This document shows positions 30,379-51,970 of a DNA stretch of 64,000 bases, in pieces. The DNA comes from a phage. The stretch lies in the NCBI GenBank assembly GCA_018509705.1, contig GCA_018509705.1_3630.1. One strand, written 5' to 3'. A program made the position numbers and the translations under genes. Under the pieces are notes generated by a model that did no database searches, had not been told where the DNA came from, and saw only the letters and a list, made by a program, of their open reading frames with translations. Within the stretch, counting starts at the first letter, position 1. Every line of letters begins with the position of its first letter.

Positions 30379-31467
30379 TTAGATAAAACGCTTGAACATA
30401 GAAGGTGATGAGATTGATGGAATCACACAAGGAAGTGCTACCTCCTCTTTCTCCAGGAAATTAATCGCAGAAGCTACGCAGTCGGCCCAGTCGTCTTTTC
30501 TGTTAAATGTTGATCTTTCCCCGTTGAATTTTTCAAGTTCAGTCAGAAATGCTTCCAGAGTATCAGGATGGAAACTGGATTTTACAATCCTCACCATTCC
30601 TTGTTGGGCAAGATTGGCAAAAGGTGAGAACCTTGTCAGTTTAGACTTGTTGGAAGGCATTGGGTCTTCTTCAACCCTGAACCCTTCGGCAAGCAAGGAT
30701 CTGGAGGAGGTTAAGAACTCACTCTTACCTGCCTGCCCTGGGTCCACAGAGAAGACGATTATGCAATCATCACCATCGAACTGCGCCTGTTTCCTGATGA
30801 TCACATCTCGTTCACCAGCCTTTTTACAGAACTTGCCTTCCAGACCTGTGGAATACCTCCCGTCATCCACGTTCTCAGGACAATAATCACCGGACAGGTA
30901 ATAAAAGCCGTCGCTATCTTTACTTACCTTAATACTGGCAGTAAAGTCAGGAAATTTATTACCGGAAGTTCTCTCGGTTCCTGCCTTATCCCATGCCCTG
31001 CAAGATACTGACCCAAGAGGTACTCTATCGGCATCACGAAGGAAAGATCTTTGAAAATAGTTTGCACCCTCAGGCTTTGCAAACCAGTTACCATGGAGAA
31101 GCTGAGCTTTTTCCAGCTCTGGTAGACCTTCGAGGAAAGCAAGGTATTCTGGGTTGTCTCTCAAACAGACAGGATTATCGAATATTGTTGCGCCTATGAA
31201 CGAGAATGACAACGGTCTTGGCTTGATCTCTACGCCAAGTCCGTTAACCGTGGTGTATTTCTCTATCAACTCTTCTTTAGAGTCTCCCCAGATAAATTCA
31301 CCGTCGCGTCGGATAAAATATCTTTTCTTACCGCATTTCTCCGGATCTGGATACCCTTCATCGTCCAACCACCATCTAACCAGTTTGGCAAGCATGTGTT
31401 CTGAATCGGGGTTACAGCTGATAACCATTCTTGATGGATACTTTGACGGAGATCGCAGACGAGACAT
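30379..31467 (-). CDS. terminase large subunit, C-terminal segment (putative exon 2; true 5' boundary unknown)
   Basis: 362-aa ORF that continues the ATPase/nuclease protein begun in 32381-32809; the track start is probably not the real exon boundary. Confidence 0.55.
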   Translation of the reverse strand: MSRLRSPSKYPSRMVISCNPDSEHMLAKLVRWWLDDEGYPDPEKCGKKRYFIRRDGEFIWGDSKEELIEKYTTVNGLGVEIKPRPLSFSFIGATIFDNPVCLRDNPEYLAFLEGLPELEKAQLLHGNWFAKPEGANYFQRSFLRDADRVPLGSVSCRAWDKAGTERTSGNKFPDFTASIKVSKDSDGFYYLSGDYCPENVDDGRYSTGLEGKFCKKAGERDVIIRKQAQFDGDDCIIVFSVDPGQAGKSEFLTSSRSLLAEGFRVEEDPMPSNKSKLTRFSPFANLAQQGMVRIVKSSFHPDTLEAFLTELEKFNGERSTFNRKDDWADCVASAINFLEKEEVALPCVIPSISSPSMFKRFI

Positions 31468-32380
31468 CAGATAGTCTATCTGCTCCCATTCGAACTGTGT
31501 CGTTTATGTTCGGGCAAGGTCGCTAGTCTTGCCCCGCCATTTTCAGGCAGCTGCATGTCTCCATGCAGACCAGACTATATCTTATGAATGTGCAAATACT
31601 CTGCCGCTCTAAGAATAGTTTCCTCATCCTCTTGGAAGAAACCTAAAGCTCTGTTGCATTTATCACAAAGCAACCCTCTTACAGCACCAGTTTTATGGTC
31701 ATGATCAACACAAAAGAAATCTCTGTACCCTTGCGTCCTATACTCATCAAGAGATATTCTACAAATGGCACACTTATGATCTTGATCTGAGAGTAGACGA
31801 TAGTATTCATCTTTTGTTATGTGAAATTTCTTCTCAATCTGATAAAACTTTTCACACATCTTACACCTGTTCGTAACCAGATATACTTTACCATAGTCAC
31901 GTTTTGTGTAAAAACTATCAGCGAGCATACTTTCATGACAAGATTTGCATTCAAAAAGTTCACCTTTCTTCAGCAAGTCTTGAATAAATAATGCTGCGTC
32001 ATCTCTCTTAACCATATTTTTGTTTCTACGAGATCCACCCTTCCTGTAGTACATATAGCATTCCTTGCATGTACCTGAGTATCCATCCTTGCTCTTAGAT
32101 GATAAAAAGAAATCATCAATAGGTAGAACTCTTTGGCAATCCATACATTTTTTAGTATTACACATTCACCCTCCCGTTTCGAATCGCTTGATTCTACGTC
32201 TTTCGACTAGTCGTTGAACGTTCATCCTCTCGGATGCTTCGCTGCGGATTATCTAAATTAACACACTGTTACCATACCTTCGATCTCTCTTCGAAGCCTC
32301 TATCATGTTACCATGACAGGTTGGTGGTGTCAATAATAAAGATTTCCCCGCAATTAGGGAGGTTTTACGAGAGCTACAAA
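31468..32380 (-). mobile_element. intervening sequence in the terminase large subunit gene (putative self-splicing intron) carrying an HNH endonuclease ORF
   Basis: Lies between the in-frame stop of the ATPase segment and the C-terminal segment; contains the 31575-32165 ORF; flanks are GC-richer and stem-forming; intron class not determined. Confidence 0.45.
31575..32165 (-). CDS. HNH / endonuclease VII-like homing endonuclease
   Basis: Cys-rich N-terminus and FFCVDHDHKTGAVRGLLCDKCN motif, as in T4 gp49-type HNH nucleases. Confidence 0.65.
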   Translation of the reverse strand: MCNTKKCMDCQRVLPIDDFFLSSKSKDGYSGTCKECYMYYRKGGSRRNKNMVKRDDAALFIQDLLKKGELFECKSCHESMLADSFYTKRDYGKVYLVTNRCKMCEKFYQIEKKFHITKDEYYRLLSDQDHKCAICRISLDEYRTQGYRDFFCVDHDHKTGAVRGLLCDKCNRALGFFQEDEETILRAAEYLHIHKI

Positions 32381-32809
32381 TTAACCCTCATCGAAGCAAA
32401 CCATGGTGTACTCAAGCCCTTGATGGTTAAGCTTATCTTGTACATACTCCATGTGACAGTATTTTACAACAGCTCCCTTTTTGCTTCTATCCCACTTGCC
32501 AGTGTTCGGATCAAACCGTGGAAAAATGAACTTATGATCCTTCTCTCTGAACTTTGGCTTAATGTTTTCAGGCAGATCACTGTAAATAGCTACTGCTTTA
32601 GGCCATAGTCCACCCTCACCTTCCAACTGTGGGGTTGTTCTTCGGAACATAACCACAGAGCTGTGGGGGTCATCAATAATTTTAAGTGGCATCAACTGCA
32701 AGAGGAACGACTTGCCAGACCCTGCGGCACCGCCGATTACCAAAATATCTGCATCGTTTTCTAGGATCATCTTCTGCTTTTCAGAACACGGTCCGTAAAT
32801 CTTAGACAT
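32381..32809 (-). CDS. terminase large subunit, N-terminal ATPase segment (putative exon 1)
   Basis: Walker A ILVIGGAAGSGKSFLL and Walker B-like MVCFDEG immediately before the stop. Confidence 0.7.
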   Translation of the reverse strand: MSKIYGPCSEKQKMILENDADILVIGGAAGSGKSFLLQLMPLKIIDDPHSSVVMFRRTTPQLEGEGGLWPKAVAIYSDLPENIKPKFREKDHKFIFPRFDPNTGKWDRSKKGAVVKYCHMEYVQDKLNHQGLEYTMVCFDEG

Positions 32810-34157: not shown

Positions 34158-34256
34158 GGTGCTAGGTGATGGAATCGAACCACCTATGTATTCAACGACT
34201 ACCTCGTCTATTTTCAGGATTAAAAATCCTCGCCCTTGCCAAAGGGCTTACCTAGC
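34158..34256 (-). tRNA. atypical tRNA-like gene (about 99 nt; isotype unresolved)
   Basis: Good acceptor (GCTAGGT/ACCTAGC) and T-arm (GGTGG-TTCGATT-CCATC), but about 24 extra nt between D and T arms; anticodon arm ambiguous (AGGAT-TTTTA-ATCCT or 4-bp stem with UUU). Confidence 0.3.
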
Positions 34257-43487: not shown

Positions 43488-43976
43488 ATGAAACTTGATA
43501 AAAATGTTCAACGAAAAGCTTTCTTGGATATGATCGCATATTCGGAAGGAACAGATAATGGTAGACAACCTACCAAGGATCGGGGGTACGATGTCATAGT
43601 CGGCGGCAAGCTGTTCAGCGATTACAGCAAGCATCCCGGTGTTTACGTTAAGCTAAATGCTAAACTTACCTCCTCCGCTGCTGGGCGTTACCAGGTTTTG
43701 GAGAAGTTTGCTAAACACTACATGAAACAGTTAGGATTACCAGATTTTGGCCCTGCCAGTCAGGACAAGATTGCGTTGCAACTGATCCGTGAGTGCAAGG
43801 CTCTCGCCGACATTGATGAAGGGCGTATTCATCAGGCCATTTATAAATGCCGCAGCCGCTGGGCAAGCTTCCCACCACCGCCAGGGGCTGGAAAGCTGTA
43901 CAATCAGCGAGCAGAAAGTATAGACAAGATGCTGGAGATCTTTAAGAGGGCAGGTGGAGTTGTTACAGATGAGTAA
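43488..43976 (+). CDS. endolysin, lambda R-type lytic transglycosylase
   Basis: N-terminus QRKAFLDMIAYSEGTDNGRQPTKDRGYDVIVGG closely parallels the lambda R N-terminus recalled from memory. Confidence 0.8.
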   Translation: MKLDKNVQRKAFLDMIAYSEGTDNGRQPTKDRGYDVIVGGKLFSDYSKHPGVYVKLNAKLTSSAAGRYQVLEKFAKHYMKQLGLPDFGPASQDKIALQLIRECKALADIDEGRIHQAIYKCRSRWASFPPPPGAGKLYNQRAESIDKMLEIFKRAGGVVTDE

Positions 43977-44649
43977 CGGGATTGACTGGTGGAGTGTCTT
44001 TAGATACGATACAGGCACTGGAAGGTTGTTTTGGAAGTCCCCACCAAAAAACAAACCTCAACTAATGGGAAAGGAGGCTGGATGTACTAACAACGGGTAC
44101 AGGGATATAGTCTATCGTGGCGTGCATTACTACAGGCATAGATTGGTGTGGGAGATGCATTATGGACCAATCCCAGAAGGGTACGAAGTTGATCACATAA
44201 AGCCACTTTTCTATTCCGACGGTGTTGCGGATGATAGGGTAGAAAACCTACAACTGTTAACACCAGAAGAAAATGCAAAAAAGGCGGCAGATGACGGATG
44301 CCTGGCACGCAAGATACCTAAATCCAATACTGGACATTTGGGTGTATATTTTCATGCTAGATCTGGAAGGTATGCTGCTTTTGGTAAGGTAGGTCATTAC
44401 TATAAGAAAGACCTAGGAGAATACGATACCTTAGAAGAGGCCATTGCTGCTCAAAAGTCTTTTGAAAGTGGCACGTTTGTCAGGGAATATCGTGGACAGC
44501 CTTTAGGGAGGGATAAATCTAGAGGTGTCAGATTTGAAGCAGATAGGGGCAAATGGAAAGTAACTTTCAGAGGAAAAACGCTAGGCAGGTTTGACACCAA
44601 AGAGTCTGCTGAAGCGTGTTACGCAAAGGCTCTTACTGAAAGCTTGTAA
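43969..44649 (+). CDS. HNH homing endonuclease with AP2-like DNA-binding domain
   Basis: HNH_3-type core (YRHRLVWEMHYGPIPEGYEVDHIKP...ENLQLLTPEEN) then AP2-like segment; start placed at the ATG overlapping the endolysin stop. Confidence 0.6.
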   Translation: MSNGIDWWSVFRYDTGTGRLFWKSPPKNKPQLMGKEAGCTNNGYRDIVYRGVHYYRHRLVWEMHYGPIPEGYEVDHIKPLFYSDGVADDRVENLQLLTPEENAKKAADDGCLARKIPKSNTGHLGVYFHARSGRYAAFGKVGHYYKKDLGEYDTLEEAIAAQKSFESGTFVREYRGQPLGRDKSRGVRFEADRGKWKVTFRGKTLGRFDTKESAEACYAKALTESL

Positions 44650-44717
44650 CAGTATCATTGACATAACCACACGGACGTGGTATTGTCACCTCATAAAATG
44701 TTTGAGAGGGTTTAACC

Positions 44718-44924
44718 ATGAAAGATTTTCTGTTGGCAATTTTGTTCATGGCGGCATGTCTGGCCTGTGGTGTAGTGTTTGCAGGTGAAACAGCGTATCT
44801 TGTCGATGTATATCGGGACAATGGTAAACGTATTTGCCTTTATGAGACAAGCCAAGGTGAGCTCTACGAACTTGTGAAACAAGGAGAGGCAGGTTCCTGC
44901 CCTCGTACCCATTTCTTTGAATGA
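44718..44924 (+). CDS. small secreted or lipoprotein-like protein (68 aa)
   Basis: N-terminal hydrophobic signal-like segment with Cys (LLAILFMAACLACGVVFAG). Confidence 0.3.
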   Translation: MKDFLLAILFMAACLACGVVFAGETAYLVDVYRDNGKRICLYETSQGELYELVKQGEAGSCPRTHFFE

Positions 44925-44933
44925 GGAGGATAC

Positions 44934-45398
44934 GTGGAAGACGGACGTTTAATGAAGTCTGAACGCAGGCTTATTGTGCAACTGATCCCAGAAACAGCTT
45001 GGTATAATAACCTCCGAAACGCTGTAAAGAAGAGTGAGTGGGATAAGATCCGCAAGAAGTGCTATAGAGAAGCCAACTACACCTGTGAGGTGTGCGGCGG
45101 TAAAGGCAGCAAACACCCAGTGGAGTGTCATGAACTTTACACTTTCGAAGAGGGAGTGATCCGGCTTGTCGGACTGATAGCGTTGTGCCCAGATTGTCAC
45201 ACATCGGTGCATCCTGGGTTAGCAAATATTCGTGGAAAGTATGCTCAGGCAGTTAATCAGTTGGCTAAGGTGAATAAGATCACCAGAGGTATGGCAGAGG
45301 CGTATTACCGAGACTGCTTTGCAGAGTGGCGCGAGCTTAGTAAAGTTCCAGAATGGAAGACTGACTTTTCGTGGATAGAGGATTACCTTGATGGCTAA
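44934..45398 (+). CDS. hypothetical Cys/His-rich protein (possible zinc-binding nuclease)
   Basis: CEVCGG...HPVECHELY...ALCPDCHTSVH cluster. Confidence 0.3.
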   Translation: MEDGRLMKSERRLIVQLIPETAWYNNLRNAVKKSEWDKIRKKCYREANYTCEVCGGKGSKHPVECHELYTFEEGVIRLVGLIALCPDCHTSVHPGLANIRGKYAQAVNQLAKVNKITRGMAEAYYRDCFAEWRELSKVPEWKTDFSWIEDYLDG

Positions 45399-45681
45399 GA
45401 GATCTGTAAAAGAGAAATTCGATAAGACAGCTTTTGTATTCGATACACCTCTGGACGATATCATCAGAGGTATGCAAGCCTTGTATCGGAAGGCTGAATC
45501 TGAGCAGTTGTCTGAATCAGAACTTTACTGGCTTGGTTGGTGGGAGTTAAACCTGCCTAGAGCTGAAAGTTCTTGTCTGAGAACTGTTAAAACGTGCGCC
45601 CAAGAAAACGCTGCACTTGGAATCTACCACAAAAGGAAAAGATCAACAAAAAGCTCTCCAAGAAAGACTAAAAAGTCTTGA
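45388..45681 (+). CDS. hypothetical protein with basic C-terminal tail
   Basis: ORF track. Confidence 0.3.
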   Translation: MMAKRSVKEKFDKTAFVFDTPLDDIIRGMQALYRKAESEQLSESELYWLGWWELNLPRAESSCLRTVKTCAQENAALGIYHKRKRSTKSSPRKTKKS

Positions 45682-45707
45682 CAAAAGTGTTATTAATCTG
45701 ATATTAT
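45678..45707 (+). promoter_or_regulatory. sigma70-like promoter (TTGACA-18-TATTAT)
   Basis: cTTGACAaaagtgttattaatctgaTATTATcgg upstream of the 45741 gene. Confidence 0.45.
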
Positions 45708-45740
45708 CGGTCAGATATCTATAAACTAGGAGAACTAGAT

Positions 45741-46049
45741 ATGCTTAAAATTTTTATTGTTGAAGATAAAGATATTGTCCAGTTGTATGCAAACGAGAAT
45801 CATAAAGGTATGATTCTGAAGAAGGCAAGCAACCTTCATGAAAACACAATTCAACCTGGCGATGTAATTAAGATCTGTGGTTATATGATACCAGACTCCT
45901 TGATGAAAATAACCCACCACTGGGGGTCTAATCCGTTCCTTTTTGAAAAGTATTGGGATGTTGAGTCACTTATTGCAGAGAGTGATGATGCATTCCATTA
46001 CAGCATCCAACCATCTTGCAGAATAACTAACAGGAGGGTCTTTGAGTAG
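45741..46049 (+). CDS. hypothetical protein
   Basis: ORF track; AGGAG RBS. Confidence 0.35.
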   Translation: MLKIFIVEDKDIVQLYANENHKGMILKKASNLHENTIQPGDVIKICGYMIPDSLMKITHHWGSNPFLFEKYWDVESLIAESDDAFHYSIQPSCRITNRRVFE

Positions 46050-47181
46050 AGAATATCCACTTATTGAGTCCATAGATTGTCTGGCTGATCTTCTTGAACC
46101 TGACGCTATAGTTTATTATGACTTCGATCAGGTTGCATATCAAGCTGCAGCAAGTTGTGAAAAAAGGACAATTGAGGTAACACACAAAGCCTCCGGACGT
46201 AAGAAGATGTTTAAAACACGAACAGAGTTCTGGGGGCGGCAGAAGAACACCGTTGGTGGTTGGTTAAAAGCTGAGAATACCAACCGTGAAGCTGCATGTA
46301 AAAAGGCTGGCAAGGAGTTTATTCCGTGGACACGAGAAGATTTCGATGTCTTGGATATCCAAACCCCTGATCCTGTAGAGAACTGCTTGCACACAATTAA
46401 GTGTAAAGCTAATGCAGTCCTTAATTATCTCGGTATTCCGGAAGATCGGTGCGTGGGGGTACTTGGAGGCACAGGTAATTTCAGACTAGATCTTCCCATG
46501 CCGGAAAGATATAAAGCCAACCGTAACAATACTCTTCGACCACTGCTGCTTGGAGATGCAAGACAGTATCTCCAAAAGCAGTATAATGCTCAAGTGATCA
46601 ACGGTATCGAGGCTGACGACTGGTTAGCTATCCAGCAATTTGAAGGTTGGAATCACTACCAAAAAACAGGTAAGTTCAACAAGTTTATTATCTCTATTGA
46701 TAAGGACCAAAGAACACTACCGGGGCTTGTGTTCGATCCCATGCGAAACGATAAGGGAGATTTTGTAAGAGAAACCCCTATGCTGATCGATAACGGTATG
46801 GGGAACATCTTCATGAAGCCTAATGGAGAGGTTGGTGGTTACGGAATGCTGTTCTTCGGATACCAAATGCTGTGTGGTGACTCTGCTGACAACATCAAGC
46901 CGTATCAGGGACTTATCGGTAAGGGTAAGTTCGGAGATGCCTCAGCATTCTACCTACTGTCTCAGTGCAGCACTCCAAAGGAGATGTGGATGGCTATTAT
47001 TGATCAGTACAAGAAGTGGTTCCCGAAAGGTGTTGTTAAGTATACTGACTTCAATGGTATTGATCGTAGAATTTCCGTAGGTCAATGGATGAGTATAATT
47101 TTTGACTGTTTGTATATGAAGCGAACATTCAATGATCAAACAAAACTTGTTAACGTTCTTAGAAATGTTGGAGCAATTTGA
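46042..47181 (+). CDS. 5'-3' exonuclease / flap endonuclease (RNase H-like)
   Basis: YKANRN and GIEADDWLA motifs plus H3TH-like GDSADNIKPYQGLIGKG; alternative (TTG) start. Confidence 0.6.
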   Translation: MSREYPLIESIDCLADLLEPDAIVYYDFDQVAYQAAASCEKRTIEVTHKASGRKKMFKTRTEFWGRQKNTVGGWLKAENTNREAACKKAGKEFIPWTREDFDVLDIQTPDPVENCLHTIKCKANAVLNYLGIPEDRCVGVLGGTGNFRLDLPMPERYKANRNNTLRPLLLGDARQYLQKQYNAQVINGIEADDWLAIQQFEGWNHYQKTGKFNKFIISIDKDQRTLPGLVFDPMRNDKGDFVRETPMLIDNGMGNIFMKPNGEVGGYGMLFFGYQMLCGDSADNIKPYQGLIGKGKFGDASAFYLLSQCSTPKEMWMAIIDQYKKWFPKGVVKYTDFNGIDRRISVGQWMSIIFDCLYMKRTFNDQTKLVNVLRNVGAI

Positions 47182-47513
47182 TGACTAAAAATTCTGTAGA
47201 TAACGCAATTATGGAAGCTGTTTTTGAGGATGATCACACAACAGGGACACTTAAAACAAAAAATACATTCGTTGTTGCCACAGGTATGTGGCGGTTGTAT
47301 GAAGATGACACCATTTCATACATCCTGTACACGGATGATTACGCAGATGACCGTGTATGGTCTGCTGTTTTAAAAGAGGATTGTGAGCTGATTGAGGGCG
47401 AGCGGTTATGCATGTTCACCAGTGTGGAAACAGATGTTAAGCTTTGCTCTCTCGTATTGTTCAAAGATAAGGCTTATGCTCCTGATGAAGGAGAGGAGGA
47501 TGAGGAAGCATGA
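47178..47513 (+). CDS. hypothetical protein with acidic C-terminus
   Basis: ORF track. Confidence 0.3.
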   Translation: MMTKNSVDNAIMEAVFEDDHTTGTLKTKNTFVVATGMWRLYEDDTISYILYTDDYADDRVWSAVLKEDCELIEGERLCMFTSVETDVKLCSLVLFKDKAYAPDEGEEDEEA

Positions 47514-48139
47514 GAGAGCGTCTATTATCCATAGACCAGTCGTTGACACACACAGCTTGCGTTGTATGGGACGATGGAAAGCCTGTTCATAAGGTTGTGT
47601 TACGAACTCAAAGCTCATCTGCAAAAGAGAAGAAACCAGGGACGGTTTCTTTTGCAACAGCTGCTGAGCGTATTGACTGGATCTGCAAACAGGTCAGATA
47701 TTATATCCACACGCACGGCGTTGACACCGTAGTTATGGAAGGGCTTTCCTTTGGATCACGCGGGGATGCCACACGTGAACTGGCTGGGTTGTTTTACGGT
47801 CTTGAAGTTATGCTTTGGGATGCCTTAGCTGATTGTGAAAATGACGGCCTGTTTAAGGTCCACACAGTGACACCAACAACTGCCAAAAAGTTTGCTCGTA
47901 GTCATCTTCCTGAGGAACTTGCTTTCGAGGAGAAGAAAAAGCTTGACAAAAAGACAGGTAAAGAGCATACTGTGAAGAAACCTGTTACGATGGATAAAAA
48001 GTTGATGGTTAAGGCCTGCGAAGTATCTGAACCTGGGTTCCTAGATGGGGTCAATTTGGTACAAGGTAAGGCCGATCTCGCAGATGCTTATTGGATAGGC
48101 AGGGCGCATCTGGAGGGATTATCGCAAAGCGTAAAATAA
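47510..48139 (+). CDS. RuvC-like Holliday-junction resolvase candidate
   Basis: LSIDQSL, VVMEGLSF and ADLADAYWIG segments in RuvC-like order; moderate. Confidence 0.4.
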   Translation: MRERLLSIDQSLTHTACVVWDDGKPVHKVVLRTQSSSAKEKKPGTVSFATAAERIDWICKQVRYYIHTHGVDTVVMEGLSFGSRGDATRELAGLFYGLEVMLWDALADCENDGLFKVHTVTPTTAKKFARSHLPEELAFEEKKKLDKKTGKEHTVKKPVTMDKKLMVKACEVSEPGFLDGVNLVQGKADLADAYWIGRAHLEGLSQSVK

Positions 48140-48696
48140 GAAAGAAAGCTGTCAAAGCCCCCGTTCATAACGGGTGGTTAAAAGATTCTAAGGACATAGC
48201 CAACTTTCGAAAAGAATTGTCAGAGGAGCAGGATGGTCTTGATCCGATCTTGTGCGAGCCACTTCGTAAGCCTTGTTTGGATCATGACCATCTGACTGGT
48301 CGTTGCAGGGGTGTTTTGTCACAATGCACTAATACCTTTGAGGGGTATGTGCTTAAATACTGGATGAAATACTGTAACGAGTATACAGATTGCAGTTTAT
48401 CAGAGGCGTTGCGCCGGATGGCTGACTATTTGGAGAAAGACTACAGCGACTTCCCGCTCCACAAAAACTACAGAGATGATATGACAAAGTTCTTGAGGAG
48501 ATGCTCTAAAGCTACGATCATTGCACGAGCAGAATCAGATCTCAATATTGTCATTAATCCAGAGTGCACCAAGCATGAGGCTATTGAGTTCTACATGCAA
48601 GAGTTTATAAAGAAAACTGAGGAGAGAGATTTCTATGGGGATGAAAAAGGTATTCAATCCTTGCGACTCAGTCCTGATCAGGATGAAATACCGTAA
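48091..48696 (+). CDS. endonuclease VII-like (T4 gp49-type) HNH nuclease
   Basis: CEPLRKPCLDHDHLTGRCRGVLSQCTN motif; track ORF overlaps the upstream gene, true start probably further 3'. Confidence 0.5.
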   Translation: MDRQGASGGIIAKRKIRKKAVKAPVHNGWLKDSKDIANFRKELSEEQDGLDPILCEPLRKPCLDHDHLTGRCRGVLSQCTNTFEGYVLKYWMKYCNEYTDCSLSEALRRMADYLEKDYSDFPLHKNYRDDMTKFLRRCSKATIIARAESDLNIVINPECTKHEAIEFYMQEFIKKTEERDFYGDEKGIQSLRLSPDQDEIP

Positions 48697-48856
48697 CTGG
48701 AAAGGTGTTGTTGCAGATCGCTGCGTTACTGAGCCTAATTTATGGTTTGGCTCTACAGAGTATCATAAAGAAGAGCAGTGGTTGATGCGTGCCTTCGATG
48801 TAGACAAGGGCGAATATCGTGACTTCGCTTTAAAAGACATTCTTCAGTTTTACTAA
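48635..48856 (+). CDS. hypothetical protein
   Basis: ORF track; overlaps the 3' end of the previous ORF in another frame. Confidence 0.25.
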   Translation: MGMKKVFNPCDSVLIRMKYRNWKGVVADRCVTEPNLWFGSTEYHKEEQWLMRAFDVDKGEYRDFALKDILQFY

Positions 48857-48868
48857 GGAATCTTAACG

Positions 48869-49852
48869 ATGATGACAAAGTTAACTCTTGAGCAAATTTT
48901 AACACTAAAGCAACAGGGATACACTAATAGACAAATTGCTCGTGAATTTTTAGGCCGTGAGTCACGTGAGAGCTGGATCCGACTACAGCTTAAACGTGCA
49001 CAAGAGAATATGTCAGAGATTGTAGGAGAAGCAACGGAGCGCTTCCTTGAAGAGCACAAAGGTGCTAAAGTTTGGGTGTATGATACAGAAACATCCCCAA
49101 CAAACGGCTGGTTCTTTGGGCACTATAAGACCAACATTCAAACCTGTGGTATTGAAGTTATGCCCTATATGCTAACTTTCGCAGGTAAGTGGTTAGACAG
49201 CCCTAGTGTGGTTGACTGCGCTCTTCCCGATTACAAAATGTGGGATGAGGATATTCACAATGATCTCGAATTGATTCAGGATTTGTGGTATTATCTGGAT
49301 AAATGTGATGTCGCAGTAGCCCACAATTCAGGTTTTGACTGTGGGTGGGCCAACCAACGATTTGCATTTCACGGGTTGCCTCCAACAAGCCCCTACAAAG
49401 AGGTTGACACCCTTAAAATGATCAAGAAGGCATTCCGTTTGAATGCAAACACTTTGGAGTATGCATGCAAATACTTCCAACTTGCCCGACAGAAACTAAT
49501 TGACCACACATTTGAAATGTGGATCAAGTGTGTTCACGGTGATCTTGAGGCGTTTAAACAGATGCGGGAGTACAATGTTGGTGATATCCTATCTCTGGAA
49601 GGCCTGTATTTGCTGGCTCGACCGTTTGCTAAGCAGCACCCCAACATGTCATTGTACTACCAGGACGAGGAGCCAAAAGTTCGTTGCCCACGCTGTGGTG
49701 GAGAACACCTTCACGAGGAAGAAGCTTTGGCGTATACTCAATTGAGTGCATTTAAAACATACCGCTGCGAAGGTTGTGGATCTGTTGTTCGTGATCGTAA
49801 CAACATCCGTACCAGAGAAGAAATGAAAAACACCCTGATTCAGATAATCTAA
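48869..49852 (+). CDS. DEDD-family 3'-5' exonuclease with N-terminal HTH and C-terminal Cys clusters
   Basis: HTH-like LKQQGYTNRQIAREF; Exo I VWVYDTETSP, Exo II AHNSGFDCGW, Exo III-like HGDLEAF...YNVGD; CPRCGG...CEGCG. Confidence 0.5.
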   Translation: MMTKLTLEQILTLKQQGYTNRQIAREFLGRESRESWIRLQLKRAQENMSEIVGEATERFLEEHKGAKVWVYDTETSPTNGWFFGHYKTNIQTCGIEVMPYMLTFAGKWLDSPSVVDCALPDYKMWDEDIHNDLELIQDLWYYLDKCDVAVAHNSGFDCGWANQRFAFHGLPPTSPYKEVDTLKMIKKAFRLNANTLEYACKYFQLARQKLIDHTFEMWIKCVHGDLEAFKQMREYNVGDILSLEGLYLLARPFAKQHPNMSLYYQDEEPKVRCPRCGGEHLHEEEALAYTQLSAFKTYRCEGCGSVVRDRNNIRTREEMKNTLIQII

Positions 49853-49860
49853 CAATTATA

Positions 49861-49890
49861 GGGAGGCTTGCGCCTCCCTTTTCCTTTTGG
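49861..49890 (+). terminator. hairpin plus T-run terminator
   Basis: gggaggcttgcgcctccc followed by ttttcctttt. Confidence 0.5.
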
Positions 49891-49897
49891 AGGCACT

Positions 49898-50704
49898 TTG
49901 AGCAAGAAAGAGTCCAACGACAAATATTACACAAACCCTGAGTATGCAGAATATCTTGTTGGTAAAGTAAAAGATAAGTATGGGAATTGTGCATACGTTG
50001 AGCCTTCTGCTGGAAGGGGTTCTTTTTCAAAACTATTTTCAGAGATACTGTCGTACGATTTAGTACCAGATCCTGAATTTGAAGGACCAACACCGTGCAT
50101 TCAGGCAAACTTCTTGGAGGTGCATCCCAAGGCAGATGTCTTCATAGGTAACCCACCATTTGGCAAGAATTCATCCTTAGCTTGCAAATTCTTTAACCAT
50201 TGTGCATCATTGCTAGAGATTGGAGGAGCTATAGCCTTCATCTTGCCACGGACATTTGAAAAAATATTTTTTGCAAACAAACTGGACATGTCGATGCATC
50301 TTGTCTACAGCGAAAGGTGCCCTAAGAACTCGTTTTTACTTAATGGCAAACCTTATGACGTGCCATGTGTTTTCCAAATTTGGGAGAAAAAGGCGTGCAA
50401 TAGGGATCCTGTAGAGGTTGGAGAGAATAAGTTATTTTCTTTTAGCACACCAGATGACTACGACTTCTGTGTAAGACGTGTTGGGTATAATGCTGGAAAA
50501 GTACTGGGGGATGATGATCCAAAATCTGAAGAATCTACATATTTCATAAAATCTTTAGTTGACGGTGTTGACAGAGTGTTTGCTGAATGCTATTCTTCTT
50601 TTCAAGAAGAAGCAGGTAAGACTGCTGGAATGAAGAGTATAGGCAAGAAAGAACTACAATACATTTTGGAGACCAGGTATGATCAAAAGCATAGATTTGA
50701 CTAA
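49898..50704 (+). CDS. DNA N6-adenine methyltransferase
   Basis: Motif I-like VEPSAGRGSF and motif IV IGNPPFG; start moved to an in-frame TTG after GGAGG because the track start lies inside the terminator hairpin. Confidence 0.55.
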   Translation: MSKKESNDKYYTNPEYAEYLVGKVKDKYGNCAYVEPSAGRGSFSKLFSEILSYDLVPDPEFEGPTPCIQANFLEVHPKADVFIGNPPFGKNSSLACKFFNHCASLLEIGGAIAFILPRTFEKIFFANKLDMSMHLVYSERCPKNSFLLNGKPYDVPCVFQIWEKKACNRDPVEVGENKLFSFSTPDDYDFCVRRVGYNAGKVLGDDDPKSEESTYFIKSLVDGVDRVFAECYSSFQEEAGKTAGMKSIGKKELQYILETRYDQKHRFD

Positions 50705-51137
50705 AGAACTTACTGATGCAAAAGCTTTTGGTGAGACAGCGGTACAAAGGGGGCAGGCGATGGGACTGGCACTACCTTTCGTCTTAAAAGAGCACTTTAC
50801 CGATTTTCAACTTATCAAGGGTGATAAGGGAATGCTTATCCTGGAGCATAAGTTGAGTAAGAAACGCTATAAAGTTGTTTTTAATTCTAAAGCTCCAACA
50901 AAACTGGGATTCAGAACTTACAATCTTAACCCATCCTACACTAAGGGTGTTGGAAGGGTAGAACAACAGCATTTCAGTGCCAGAGCTTCTTTAGCCCCTT
51001 TGATGCTAAATTTCTCAGGGGTGGCTTTAGGATACCTTGATAAGAAAAGAGTTCTTCATGTCCGTTTCACAGACTTTGTAACGCTTTTAGCTAACAACGA
51101 GGTTGATGAAAAGGGACGTGTAAAAACAAACTTCTAA
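50679..51137 (+). CDS. hypothetical protein
   Basis: ORF track. Confidence 0.3.
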   Translation: MIKSIDLTKELTDAKAFGETAVQRGQAMGLALPFVLKEHFTDFQLIKGDKGMLILEHKLSKKRYKVVFNSKAPTKLGFRTYNLNPSYTKGVGRVEQQHFSARASLAPLMLNFSGVALGYLDKKRVLHVRFTDFVTLLANNEVDEKGRVKTNF

Positions 51138-51152
51138 TAACGCATAGTATGA

Positions 51153-51356
51153 TTGGAGGCCACAATGACACTAAAGTTAACAATTCCAGACAGCTTTTCA
51201 GAAAACTTTATCCCAGAAATGATGGGTAAGATGCGATCATTGCTTGATCAGATTGAGGAAGCTGTTTGGGAAGACGATGCTGTAGTGGCTAACGAGCTGG
51301 TAGATAAGTGTAAAAGTATTATTGATGCAGTTGAAGAATACCACGGAGGTTTTTGA
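51153..51356 (+). CDS. hypothetical small protein
   Basis: ORF track. Confidence 0.25.
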   Translation: MEATMTLKLTIPDSFSENFIPEMMGKMRSLLDQIEEAVWEDDAVVANELVDKCKSIIDAVEEYHGGF

Positions 51357-51970
51357 TGGATATTATTGTTCTTAACGCCCCACCTAGCAGTGGCAAGGAT
51401 CACATTGCAGATCTCTTGTTGGAAGCTATTCCTAACTCACACCACCGTGAGGTTAAGGAAATGCTCTTCAGTGTGGCAATTAAGGCAGCTGGTGTAACCC
51501 CTCAACTCTGGAGTGCACTTTATGACCGCCACTACAAGGAAGAGCCTTGCCCTTTCTTAATGATGGACGGCAAGCATGTTTCTCCGCGAGAATGGATGAT
51601 CCATTGTAGTGAAAATCTGATTAAACCTATCTTTGGTGAAGATGCTTTCGGTAAAGCCGCAGTCGCATCTTTGAAGAAAGATTTCCCTGAAGGTAAAGGG
51701 GTTGTTGTTTACTCCGATGGTGGATTCAAAGAGGAGCTGGCATGCCTTAGTGAGTACGCATACAGCACAGGTGGAGATCTGTTGTTGTTCCGTATTCACC
51801 GTGTCGGATATGACTGGGGAAATGATTCCAGAACCTATCTAAGTCTGGAAAAGAACGGAATAAAAGGGATTGAGTTTGATGTTGTAAACCCTGAAGGTGC
51901 ACCTTGGGAATGTGCATCGGAGATTGTGTGCAAGTATATTGATGCTAAAGAGGCCCAAGAAGAATGTTAA
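51353..51970 (+). CDS. deoxynucleoside monophosphate kinase-like protein
   Basis: N-terminal IIVLNAPPSSGKDHIADLL resembles T4 gp1 dNMP kinase (LIFLSGVKRSGKDTTADFI) from memory. Confidence 0.45.
   Translation: MMDIIVLNAPPSSGKDHIADLLLEAIPNSHHREVKEMLFSVAIKAAGVTPQLWSALYDRHYKEEPCPFLMMDGKHVSPREWMIHCSENLIKPIFGEDAFGKAAVASLKKDFPEGKGVVVYSDGGFKEELACLSEYAYSTGGDLLLFRIHRVGYDWGNDSRTYLSLEKNGIKGIEFDVVNPEGAPWECASEIVCKYIDAKEAQEEC

Follow-up and report, generated by a model that had tools for sequence, protein, structure and literature searches.

Two predicted structure-specific nucleases of unrelated families are encoded side by side on the plus strand of a 64,000-nucleotide (nt) stretch of phage DNA (GenBank assembly GCA_018509705.1, contig GCA_018509705.1_3630.1); the whole of this stretch is referred to here as the window. 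The first of the two open reading frames (ORFs), ORF A, encodes a RuvC-like protein, and the second, ORF B, encodes a protein of the endonuclease VII type. A further endonuclease VII-like gene, the intron ORF, was located inside the terminase gene on the minus strand. Positions 46000–50000 of the window matched 121 phage records at 90% identity or more, all of them rV5-like myoviruses of the genus Vequintavirus, and the closest match was Escherichia phage naam (99.3% identity). A six-frame local profile scan of the whole 64 kb detected exactly two Endonuclease_7-type ORFs and one RuvC-like ORF, and an NCBIfam search gave no meaningful match for any of the nucleases. A preliminary description of this DNA had proposed that two different junction-resolving nuclease candidates, one RuvC-like and one related to endonuclease VII, stand next to each other. 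Comparisons with Pfam, PHROG and known folds bore out both assignments and the adjacency of the two genes. The features of the gene pair are as follows:

47510..48139, plus strand: ORF A, 209 amino acids (aa), homologue of the RuvC-family junction resolvases (RNase H fold), identified by phrog_159, fold and catalytic residues

48121..48696 (ATC start, 191 aa) or 48091..48696 (annotated TTG start, 201 aa), plus strand: ORF B, T4 gp49-type endonuclease VII, identified by PF02945 and by T4 profile and fold matches

48112..48116, plus strand: GGAGG, resembling a Shine-Dalgarno sequence, located within the 3′ end of ORF A and followed after 4 nt by the AUC proposed as the start of ORF B

The ATG start codon of ORF A overlaps the stop codon of the upstream gene (ATGA) and is preceded by a GAGGAGG ribosome-binding site. 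The protein matched PHROG 159, 'RuvC-like Holliday junction resolvase' (phrog_159), at 3.4e-39. A search of the Protein Data Bank (PDB) with the ORF A sequence alone returned nothing relevant. The AlphaFold model of ORF A had a predicted local distance difference test score (pLDDT) of 92.9 and a predicted template modelling (TM) score (pTM) of 0.89, and when it was compared with the PDB using Foldseek, the top 11 matches were all bacterial RuvC proteins (E-values of 2e-7 to 2e-5, target TM scores of 0.72–0.79). The RuvC proteins of Thermus, Deinococcus and Pseudomonas ranked ahead of that of Escherichia coli, and further matches were phage bIL67 RuvC, the yeast mitochondrial resolvase Ydc2 and TEFM. 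In a large protein collection, 33 homologues of ORF A were found. The most distant of them were short forms of ~160 aa, two of which carried PF02075 in their precomputed annotation, and a Pfam rescan of the aligned family matched PF02075 in 4 of 30 members (E ≤ 1, best 1.8e-6).

The catalytic residues of RuvC could be traced in the ORF A family. In an alignment of 30 homologues, E77, D189 and D192 were invariant and D9 was conserved in at least 90%, the contexts of these acidic residues being IDQS, VMEGLSFG and KADLADAY. Profile alignment with the RuvC of Deinococcus radiodurans placed D9 opposite the first Asp of that protein and E77 opposite its Glu, and the 'DxADA' context suggested the equivalence of D189 and D192. 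These four residues would thus represent the RuvC acidic tetrad (D7, E66, D138, and D141 in E. coli). ORF A shares with the bacterial and phage bIL67 RuvC proteins (PDB 4LD0, 7W8D, 1HJR, 4KTW) the RNase H-like fold and the acidic residues in IDQS, MEG and DLADA contexts. However, it is only 13–17% identical to them and falls under the Pfam RuvC threshold. It is also ~50 residues longer than canonical RuvC, and an insertion of ~30 residues (about 131–160) forms a basic beta-hairpin between helices C and D, which is absent in canonical RuvC and in the short members of the family. No RuvAB partner was seen among the genes neighbouring ORF A, the only part of the window in which one was sought.

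Some of the sequence searches spoke against the assignment of ORF A to the RuvC family. Pfam gave no match even at E ≤ 0.1, and the RuvC threshold was not reached. The family profile of ORF A matched RuvC in the PDB only marginally (E = 0.56), which is weak support from sequence, and hhalign against one E. coli RuvC sequence gave a probability of 2.4% and covered helix A and strand 4 only; the latter result was left unused as evidence except for E77. The profile-search check suggested in the preliminary description therefore gave a divided answer, as Pfam misses ORF A, but we considered the Pfam miss to be outweighed by the PHROG 159 match, the bridging homologues and the RuvC fold. The RuvC call was retained on these grounds and because of the catalytic residues.

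ORF A could instead use its RNase H fold for another function, for instance the removal of primers or R-loops, or it could be a relic of a transposase or a non-catalytic factor like TEFM; ORF B would then be the sole resolvase. Such a role would agree with the Pfam miss and with the labels 'RNaseH' or 'transposase' that ORF A bears in some records, and TEFM, a protein of the RuvC fold that we take to be a non-nuclease, is among the fold matches. Moreover, a survey of jumbo phages showed that endonuclease VII-type and RuvC-type resolvases are nearly complementary in distribution (PMC7824862), so the presence of both together looks redundant. However, the four acidic catalytic positions are kept across the 30 homologues, the 11 best fold matches are true RuvC resolvases, with the RuvC of a phage (bIL67) matching too, and short members of the family pass Pfam RuvC. 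A separate gene of the 5′-exonuclease/flap endonuclease (FEN) type is already present two genes upstream of ORF A. We consider a role of this kind unlikely. ORF A is a homologue of the dimeric resolvases of the RuvC family with an intact acidic catalytic set, and its most likely task would be to cut Holliday junctions and the other branches that arise from recombination-dependent replication.

ORF B comprises a basic, Lys/Arg-rich N-terminal tail (AKRKIRKKAVKAPV), a His-Me finger core and a helical C-terminal domain. It scored 31.6 bits against Pfam Endonuclease_7 (PF02945), for which the cut-off is 23.6, and it also matched phrog_423. A profile of 29 homologues aligned with residues 9–154 of the 157 residues of T4 endonuclease VII, including the C-terminal helical half, by which the T4 enzyme builds its swapped dimer (E = 4e-14), and tblastn with ORF B reached the gp49 genes of T4-like phages directly. 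The residues D64, H65, H67, N81, and E84 (201-aa numbering) were invariant in the 29 homologues and aligned with T4 D40, H41, H43, N62, and E65. The model of ORF B had a pLDDT of 84.8, and its sole significant fold match in the PDB was T4 endonuclease VII, over 151–156 columns.

Like T4 endonuclease VII (gp49; PDB 1EN7, 2QNC), ORF B thus has the LDHDH...N...E His-Me active site and the helical C-terminal half. However, three of the four zinc cysteines of the T4 enzyme (C23, C26, C58, and C61) are missing: in the ORF B family, residues other than Cys stand at the positions of C23, C26, and C58, and the family has no invariant cysteine at all. ORF B further differs from the T4 protein in its extra basic N-terminal tail of about 15–30 residues, in its start, which is likely an AUC inside the upstream gene, and in its RuvC-like neighbour gene, which T4 lacks. 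A 73-aa ORF (48635–48856, plus strand) overlaps the final 62 nt of ORF B and showed weak WYL and Sm-like SH3 matches. It is kept after the endonuclease VII gene in relatives, and the C-terminal extension of ORF B (~15–20 aa) over this overlap was poorly modelled.

In phage T4, gp49 clears branches from the DNA for packaging. Many small phage genes named 'endonuclease VII' are free-standing homing endonucleases, and ORF B could be one of these and no debranching enzyme; the Endonuclease_7 family does hold many sporadic phage genes, as well as the intron ORF of the same genome. However, no sister genome lacked ORF B, and distant relatives had it in the same syntenic position. It is also collinear with T4 gp49 including the C-terminal helical domain, which is absent from homing-type proteins, and a homing function of ORF B is thus scarcely credible.

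The two genes belong to a plus-strand run consisting of a 102-aa ORF, a 5′-exonuclease gene (phrog_107), a 111-aa ORF, ORF A, ORF B, the 73-aa ORF and a DnaQ-like exonuclease gene (phrog_403). The order 5′-exonuclease, ~100-aa ORF, RuvC-like gene, endonuclease VII gene, and DnaQ-like exonuclease recurred in metagenomic and isolate relatives whose RuvC-like proteins were 44–51% identical. Certrevirus-like and SSBI34-like phages have a further gene of ~210 aa (phrog_12410) placed exactly between the RuvC-like gene and that of endonuclease VII (L024 2078–2722, L005 4557–5195), and their endonuclease VII gene has a canonical GTG or ATG start. The inserted gene was checked as a possible homing endonuclease and was not taken for one; phrog_12410 carries no functional assignment. 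No endonuclease VII gene was found within 1.5 kb of the more distant, short RuvC-like genes. Set against the near-complementary distribution in jumbo phages, the conserved adjacent pair is somewhat unusual. By homology, ORF A would be a second conserved junction resolvase candidate next to ORF B across the subfamily, and not a homing enzyme.

A frame overlap between the two genes had been noted in the preliminary description. It is real, and it amounts to 49 nt in the mechanically called ORFs, where ORF B (48091–48696) lies in the −1 frame relative to ORF A; however, the comparative evidence places the start of ORF B at ATC 48121, with which the overlap shrinks to 19 nt. This evidence came from 17 distinct junction sequences (the window, L002, L004, L009–L019, L021, L023, and L037). 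In all 17, the endonuclease VII frame was −1 relative to the RuvC-like frame and was open across the RuvC-like stop codon. The distance from this stop codon to the conserved core was 3, 9, 27, 30, 60, 63, 66, or 69 nt. As these values are always multiples of 3, the insertions and deletions in this part have respected the endonuclease VII frame.

Every junction contained GGAGG (GGGGG in three of them), a spacer of 4 nt (6 nt in L037) and an in-frame ATC (15 junctions) or ATA (2 junctions), which was followed by the basic tail. Around the ATC, the bases −9 to −5 and −1 to +2 were invariant. The A of the ATC also serves as the third position of a RuvC-like codon, and this codon varied among TTA, ATA, GTA, and CTA, so the amino acid shifted while the A was fixed. 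Downstream of the ATC, the endonuclease VII frame encoded a conserved (A/R)(K/R)(R/K)(K/R), whereas the RuvC-like frame was variable (QSVK, GSAR, AKGK, AGKE). In L013 and L037, the ATC overlaps the RuvC-like stop codon (TA-ATC). This arrangement resembles the common TAATG stop-start overlap and suggests that initiation may be coupled to termination. In the lineages with another gene in front of endonuclease VII, a GGAGG-like element, 4–6 nt and a GTG, ATG, or TTG codon were found at the same position, followed by Ala and the basic tail.

Upstream of the AT(C/A) codon, no ATG, GTG, or TTG was present within the open frame in 14 of the 17 variants. The consequence could be seen in L011 (2139–2711, a contig of Logan SRR23924973), in which no canonical start codon precedes the conserved endonuclease VII region: its gene table gives only a 79-aa fragment of the intact frame of ~190 aa, an annotation failure that we attributed to the probable AUC start. 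Between the RuvC-like stop codon and the first canonical start, the nonsynonymous and synonymous differences in the endonuclease VII frame (pN/pS) were 0.032/0.385 per site in one group and 0.119/0.485 in another, and the other two frames showed no synonymous excess.

In E. coli, the AUU start of infC is a known case of non-canonical initiation. The codons AUC, AUA, AUU, and CUG initiate there at ~1–2% of the level of AUG, and an N-terminal Met has been confirmed for AUC (bioRxiv 10.1101/063800). The start proposed for ORF B resembles these cases in being a near-cognate Ile codon behind a good Shine-Dalgarno sequence, with ~1–2% of the AUG level expected. It differs from them in that the codon is conserved across a phage subfamily and lies within the upstream gene or abuts its stop codon. 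No tRNA with the GAU anticodon, which reads AUC, was among the tRNAs of the window (Pro, Met(CAT), Thr, Ser, Tyr, Arg, and one odd tRNA-like gene). The start of T4 gene 49 is sequestered by an RNA structure. At the start of ORF B, the predicted RNA fold of 48085–48185 was no better than that of shuffled sequences (z = −0.9), and no stable structure sequestering it was found.

Because the endonuclease VII frame already codes for protein ahead of any canonical start codon and lies behind an invariant GGAGG-N4(6)-AT(C/A), we infer that the translation of ORF B probably starts at AUC 48121, which would be read as formylmethionine and give a protein of 191 aa, and not at the annotated TTG 48091. 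The strong GGAGG would direct initiation from inside the 3′ end of ORF A. Several points weigh against this start. The window has an in-frame canonical TTG 30 nt upstream of the ATC that this phage could use, and the 4 nt by which GGAGG precedes the start are near the lower limit of what is usual. In addition, the 17 junction variants are related by descent, and the pN/pS values were obtained from short stretches and non-independent pairs.

Two other explanations were weighed for the junction. In one of them, the start of ORF B is TTG 48091 in this phage and one or another canonical codon in its relatives, the basic tail is untranslated, and the conservation of GGAGG and ATC reflects the 'EG(L/I)S' C-terminus of ORF A. 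TTG 48091 is indeed in frame and is used as the start in GenBank records, L010 has a GTG at this position, and the Glu-Gly of ORF A specified by the GAG-GGA codons is fairly well conserved. However, no Shine-Dalgarno sequence precedes TTG 48091, and the codon itself is not kept: L011 has CTG in its place, and L012, whose RuvC-like protein is 95% identical to that of the window, has an in-frame stop codon between the TTG position and the ATC. Twelve more-distant variants lack any canonical start upstream of the ATx codon, and initiation at the first canonical start in L011 and L014 would cut off the conserved first helix. Purifying selection on the tail that precedes the canonical starts is confined to the endonuclease VII frame, and the Leu/Ile/Val codon of ORF A keeps its third base A while the amino acid varies. 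A start at TTG 48091 is therefore doubtful.

The other explanation is a programmed −1 frameshift at the end of ORF A (GTA AAA TAA, slipping on A-AAA), which would produce a RuvC-endonuclease VII fusion with GGAGG as the frameshift stimulator. Shine-Dalgarno-like elements stimulate frameshifting in dnaX and prfB, and ORF B is invariably in the −1 frame, open and overlapping the ORF A stop codon. The four A residues before this stop codon in the window would allow tRNA-Lys to re-pair in the −1 frame, and most variants have no canonical start. However, the context of the ORF A stop codon is unconserved and mostly non-slippery (GCA AGG TGA, AAA GAG TAA, AAA GGG TAA, GCG CAA TAG), and a −1-frame stop codon lies directly before the ATC in L037 and 5 codons before it in L012. 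The invariant bases are instead T-ATC and GGAGG at a fixed 4-nt spacing, and the lineages with an intervening gene have an ordinary Shine-Dalgarno sequence and GTG, ATG, or TTG at the same place. The fusion was dropped as the main explanation and is very unlikely. Initiation at AUC 48121 would result in weak expression of ORF B, perhaps coupled to the termination of ORF A, which would suit a promiscuous nuclease.

The third nuclease lies within the gene for the large subunit of terminase, which is interrupted on the minus strand as follows:

32384..32809, minus strand: exon 1 of the terminase large subunit, from Walker A up to the Asp-Glu-Gly of Walker B (PF03237, Terminase_6N, positions 2–104; alignment to an uninterrupted homologue)

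31501..32383, minus strand: group I intron of 883 nt, between GGT (Gly) and ACA (Thr) of Walker B 'VCFDEG/TQF'

31575..32165, minus strand: intron-encoded His-Me finger endonuclease of 196 aa, Endonuclease_7 family (PF02945 at 2.1e-21, 76 bits)

30379..31500, minus strand: exon 2 of the terminase large subunit, with the rest of the ATPase and the RNase H-like nuclease domain (PF03237 positions 118–211, PF17289, Terminase_6C)

The Rfam model Intron_gpI matched the intron over its full length with 47.3 bits (E = 1.2e-10); the ORF, an insert of 582 nt, kept the score slightly below the cut-off of 50. When gathering thresholds were applied to the entire window, Rfam returned tRNAs only; the intron surfaced only with an E-value threshold on a 1.2-kb stretch. 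It was backed by the ORF-less allele of rV5: the first terminase intron of that phage is the same one but has 18 nt in place of the ORF, and it scored 84.9 bits. The boundaries were fixed by alignment with phage JeffSchatz, which has an intron-less terL encoding an uninterrupted terminase large subunit (TerL) of 515 aa and reads ...TTCGATGAGGGC/ACGCAGTTCGAA... at the insertion point. Exon 1 ends in U at 32384 (GAT GAG GGT), the intron ends in ...AAACG with the G at 31501, and exon 2 begins at 31500 (ACA CAG). The joined exons encode a TerL of 515 aa collinear with the JeffSchatz protein. The codons flanking the insertion site differ synonymously, GGT/ACA in the window (32384–32386 and 31498–31500, minus strand) versus GGC ACG in the intron-less L006 (815–820), and this difference could reflect co-conversion or target-site immunity to a homing endonuclease.

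A three-segment terminase gene with a homing endonuclease and terminase introns has been described in rV5 (Kropinski et al., 2013, PMC3606486), and splicing of a terminase intron has been demonstrated by reverse transcription PCR in Pectobacterium phage CB7, a relative within the subfamily (PMC7344957). The intron of the window occupies the same terminase site as the first rV5 intron, belongs to the same group I type and has a core that is 97–99% identical. However, it carries a 196-aa Endonuclease_7-type ORF where rV5 has 18 nt, and it lacks the second intron with an HNH gene that rV5 has 317 nt into exon 2 (after window position 31184). This second intervening sequence of rV5 (NC_011041; L007 1454–2432) is 979 nt long and falls between window positions 31184 and 31183; it contains a bIL170-like HNH gene and gave a weaker group I match (35.2 bits). 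This indicated that sister phages hold different combinations of terminase introns. Among 143 matching records, 30 covered at least 80% of the query (intron plus ORF), and others covered 78% (ORF-less intron) or 66% (no intron). The intron ORF itself was found at 95% identity or more in exactly 30 phage records, about a quarter of the 121–143 sister genomes.

The preliminary description had regarded the intron ORF as a second endonuclease VII paralogue. The group I intron and its Endonuclease_7-family ORF are real, but the relationship is not a close one, as ORF B and the intron ORF have only a 26-residue His-Me motif in common (46% identity). The intron ORF keeps both CxxC zinc pairs and an N-terminal zinc-ribbon region. 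It aligned with residues 8–68 of T4 endonuclease VII only and is not collinear with the T4 protein over its full length. In our reading, it is placed at the penultimate hairpin of the intron model, which would be P8. Its best solved relative is Hpy99I (PDB 3FC3; residues 57–192 versus 59–196, nearly the entire protein), likewise a beta-beta-alpha-Me nuclease with CxxC pairs. However, Hpy99I is a restriction enzyme of a bacterial restriction-modification system, whereas the intron ORF belongs to an intron, lacks a methylase partner and occurs sporadically in the sister phages. Homing endonucleases favour highly conserved sites such as the Walker B stretch. Because the intron ORF is sporadic in sister genomes and both intron-less and ORF-less alleles exist, we infer that it is the homing endonuclease of a mobile group I intron and no recent paralogue of ORF B. 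It would act as a sequence-specific enzyme that targets the Walker B coding sequence of the terminase gene.

Here, we propose that the locus contains two unrelated structure-specific nucleases kept as a pair in rV5-type phages and their relatives, with ORF A as a RuvC-type resolvase, ORF B as the gp49 counterpart translated from AUC 48121, and the intron ORF as a homing enzyme; we consider this explanation to be probable. ORF B would debranch concatemers before and during packaging, by homology with T4 gp49. The question raised in the preliminary description, namely which of these proteins debranches DNA for packaging and which act in homing, is thus largely answerable from homology and distribution, the intron ORF being assigned to homing, ORF B to the gp49 type and ORF A to the candidate resolvases. 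Some points tell against the proposal. The enzymatic activities of all three proteins are predictions from homology, packaging debranching is given to ORF B and not to ORF A by T4 gp49 orthology only, and the stability and activity of ORF B cannot be assumed, given the loss of three of the four structural zinc ligands.

We also considered a more specific possibility, which is that the RuvC-like protein and endonuclease VII form an obligate two-nuclease unit and are not redundant resolvases; in this unit, endonuclease VII is made only at a low fixed ratio by termination-coupled initiation at the AUC/AUA codon within or next to the RuvC-like stop codon, and the work on branched replicative DNA is divided between them. 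If that were true, the division might be one of nick and counter-nick, or of junctions on one side and other branches or mismatches on the other, and it could explain why this phage subfamily keeps both families, which are nearly complementary in jumbo phages (PMC7824862). At present, we regard such a unit as rather improbable.

The genes, the intron and their annotations are already in public records and papers, and in this form the finding is already known. In some near-identical Vequintavirus records, the three genes bear the names RuvC-like resolvase, endonuclease VII and intron homing endonuclease, and at least one public record (H167) annotates adjacent genes as 'RuvC-like Holliday junction resolvase' and 'endonuclease'. 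Literature searches returned nothing about the RuvC-like protein that these phages encode, an AUC start for endonuclease VII, the pairing of the two genes or the zinc-less form. The conserved pairing of two resolvase families, the zinc-less endonuclease VII and its probable AUC start are modest additions. The start of endonuclease VII is probably wrong in public records, which place it at TTG 48091 in some cases and at a downstream codon that truncates the gene in others, and some gene callers miss the full-length gene. If the proposed start is correct, ORF B would be a test case for gene callers, and the conserved AUC/AUA codon behind a strong Shine-Dalgarno sequence would be a clean natural example of throttled expression of a toxic nuclease. 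As these coliphages are genetically tractable, they provide a convenient system for asking why a phage needs both resolvase families.

Consensus scans of the plus strand around the gene pair identified two candidate boundary signals:

45678..45707, plus strand: match to a sigma-70-like promoter (TTGACA-18-TATTAT, with TG) that agrees with the consensus at 11 of 12 positions and ranks first in 43500–51500

49860..49879, plus strand: intrinsic-terminator-like hairpin of 8 pairs (6 G-C) followed by a T run, directly after the DnaQ-like exonuclease gene

These scans suggested that the two signals are the likely start and end of an operon comprising the 5′-exonuclease gene, the 111-aa ORF, ORF A, ORF B, the 73-aa ORF and the DnaQ-like exonuclease gene. 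ORF A and ORF B would then be expressed from one early or middle nuclease operon, between the two exonuclease genes. A further nuclease gene nearby, three genes upstream of ORF A at 44934–45398 (plus strand), encodes a free-standing HNH endonuclease (phrog_5200, 1.3e-72) with a weak IscB-like HNH match. It is labelled 'putative homing endonuclease' in phage EmilHeitz and was unmentioned in the preliminary description.

At the scale of the whole window, the minus strand carries the structural and packaging genes and the plus strand the replication genes, and the GC skew flips sign near 38 kb. The tRNA cluster contains a 99-nt tRNA-like gene (34158–34256, minus strand) that ARAGORN left without assignment, with a four-base 'atcc' anticodon call. 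Its Rfam tRNA score was just 35.5 bits, and its neighbours are ordinary tRNA-Pro, Met(CAT), Thr, Ser, Tyr, and Arg genes. About 20 'Campylobacter phage' records (MG0656xx) were 95–99% identical to this type of coliphage across the region, which suggests that E. coli phage sequences were deposited with Campylobacter given as the host.

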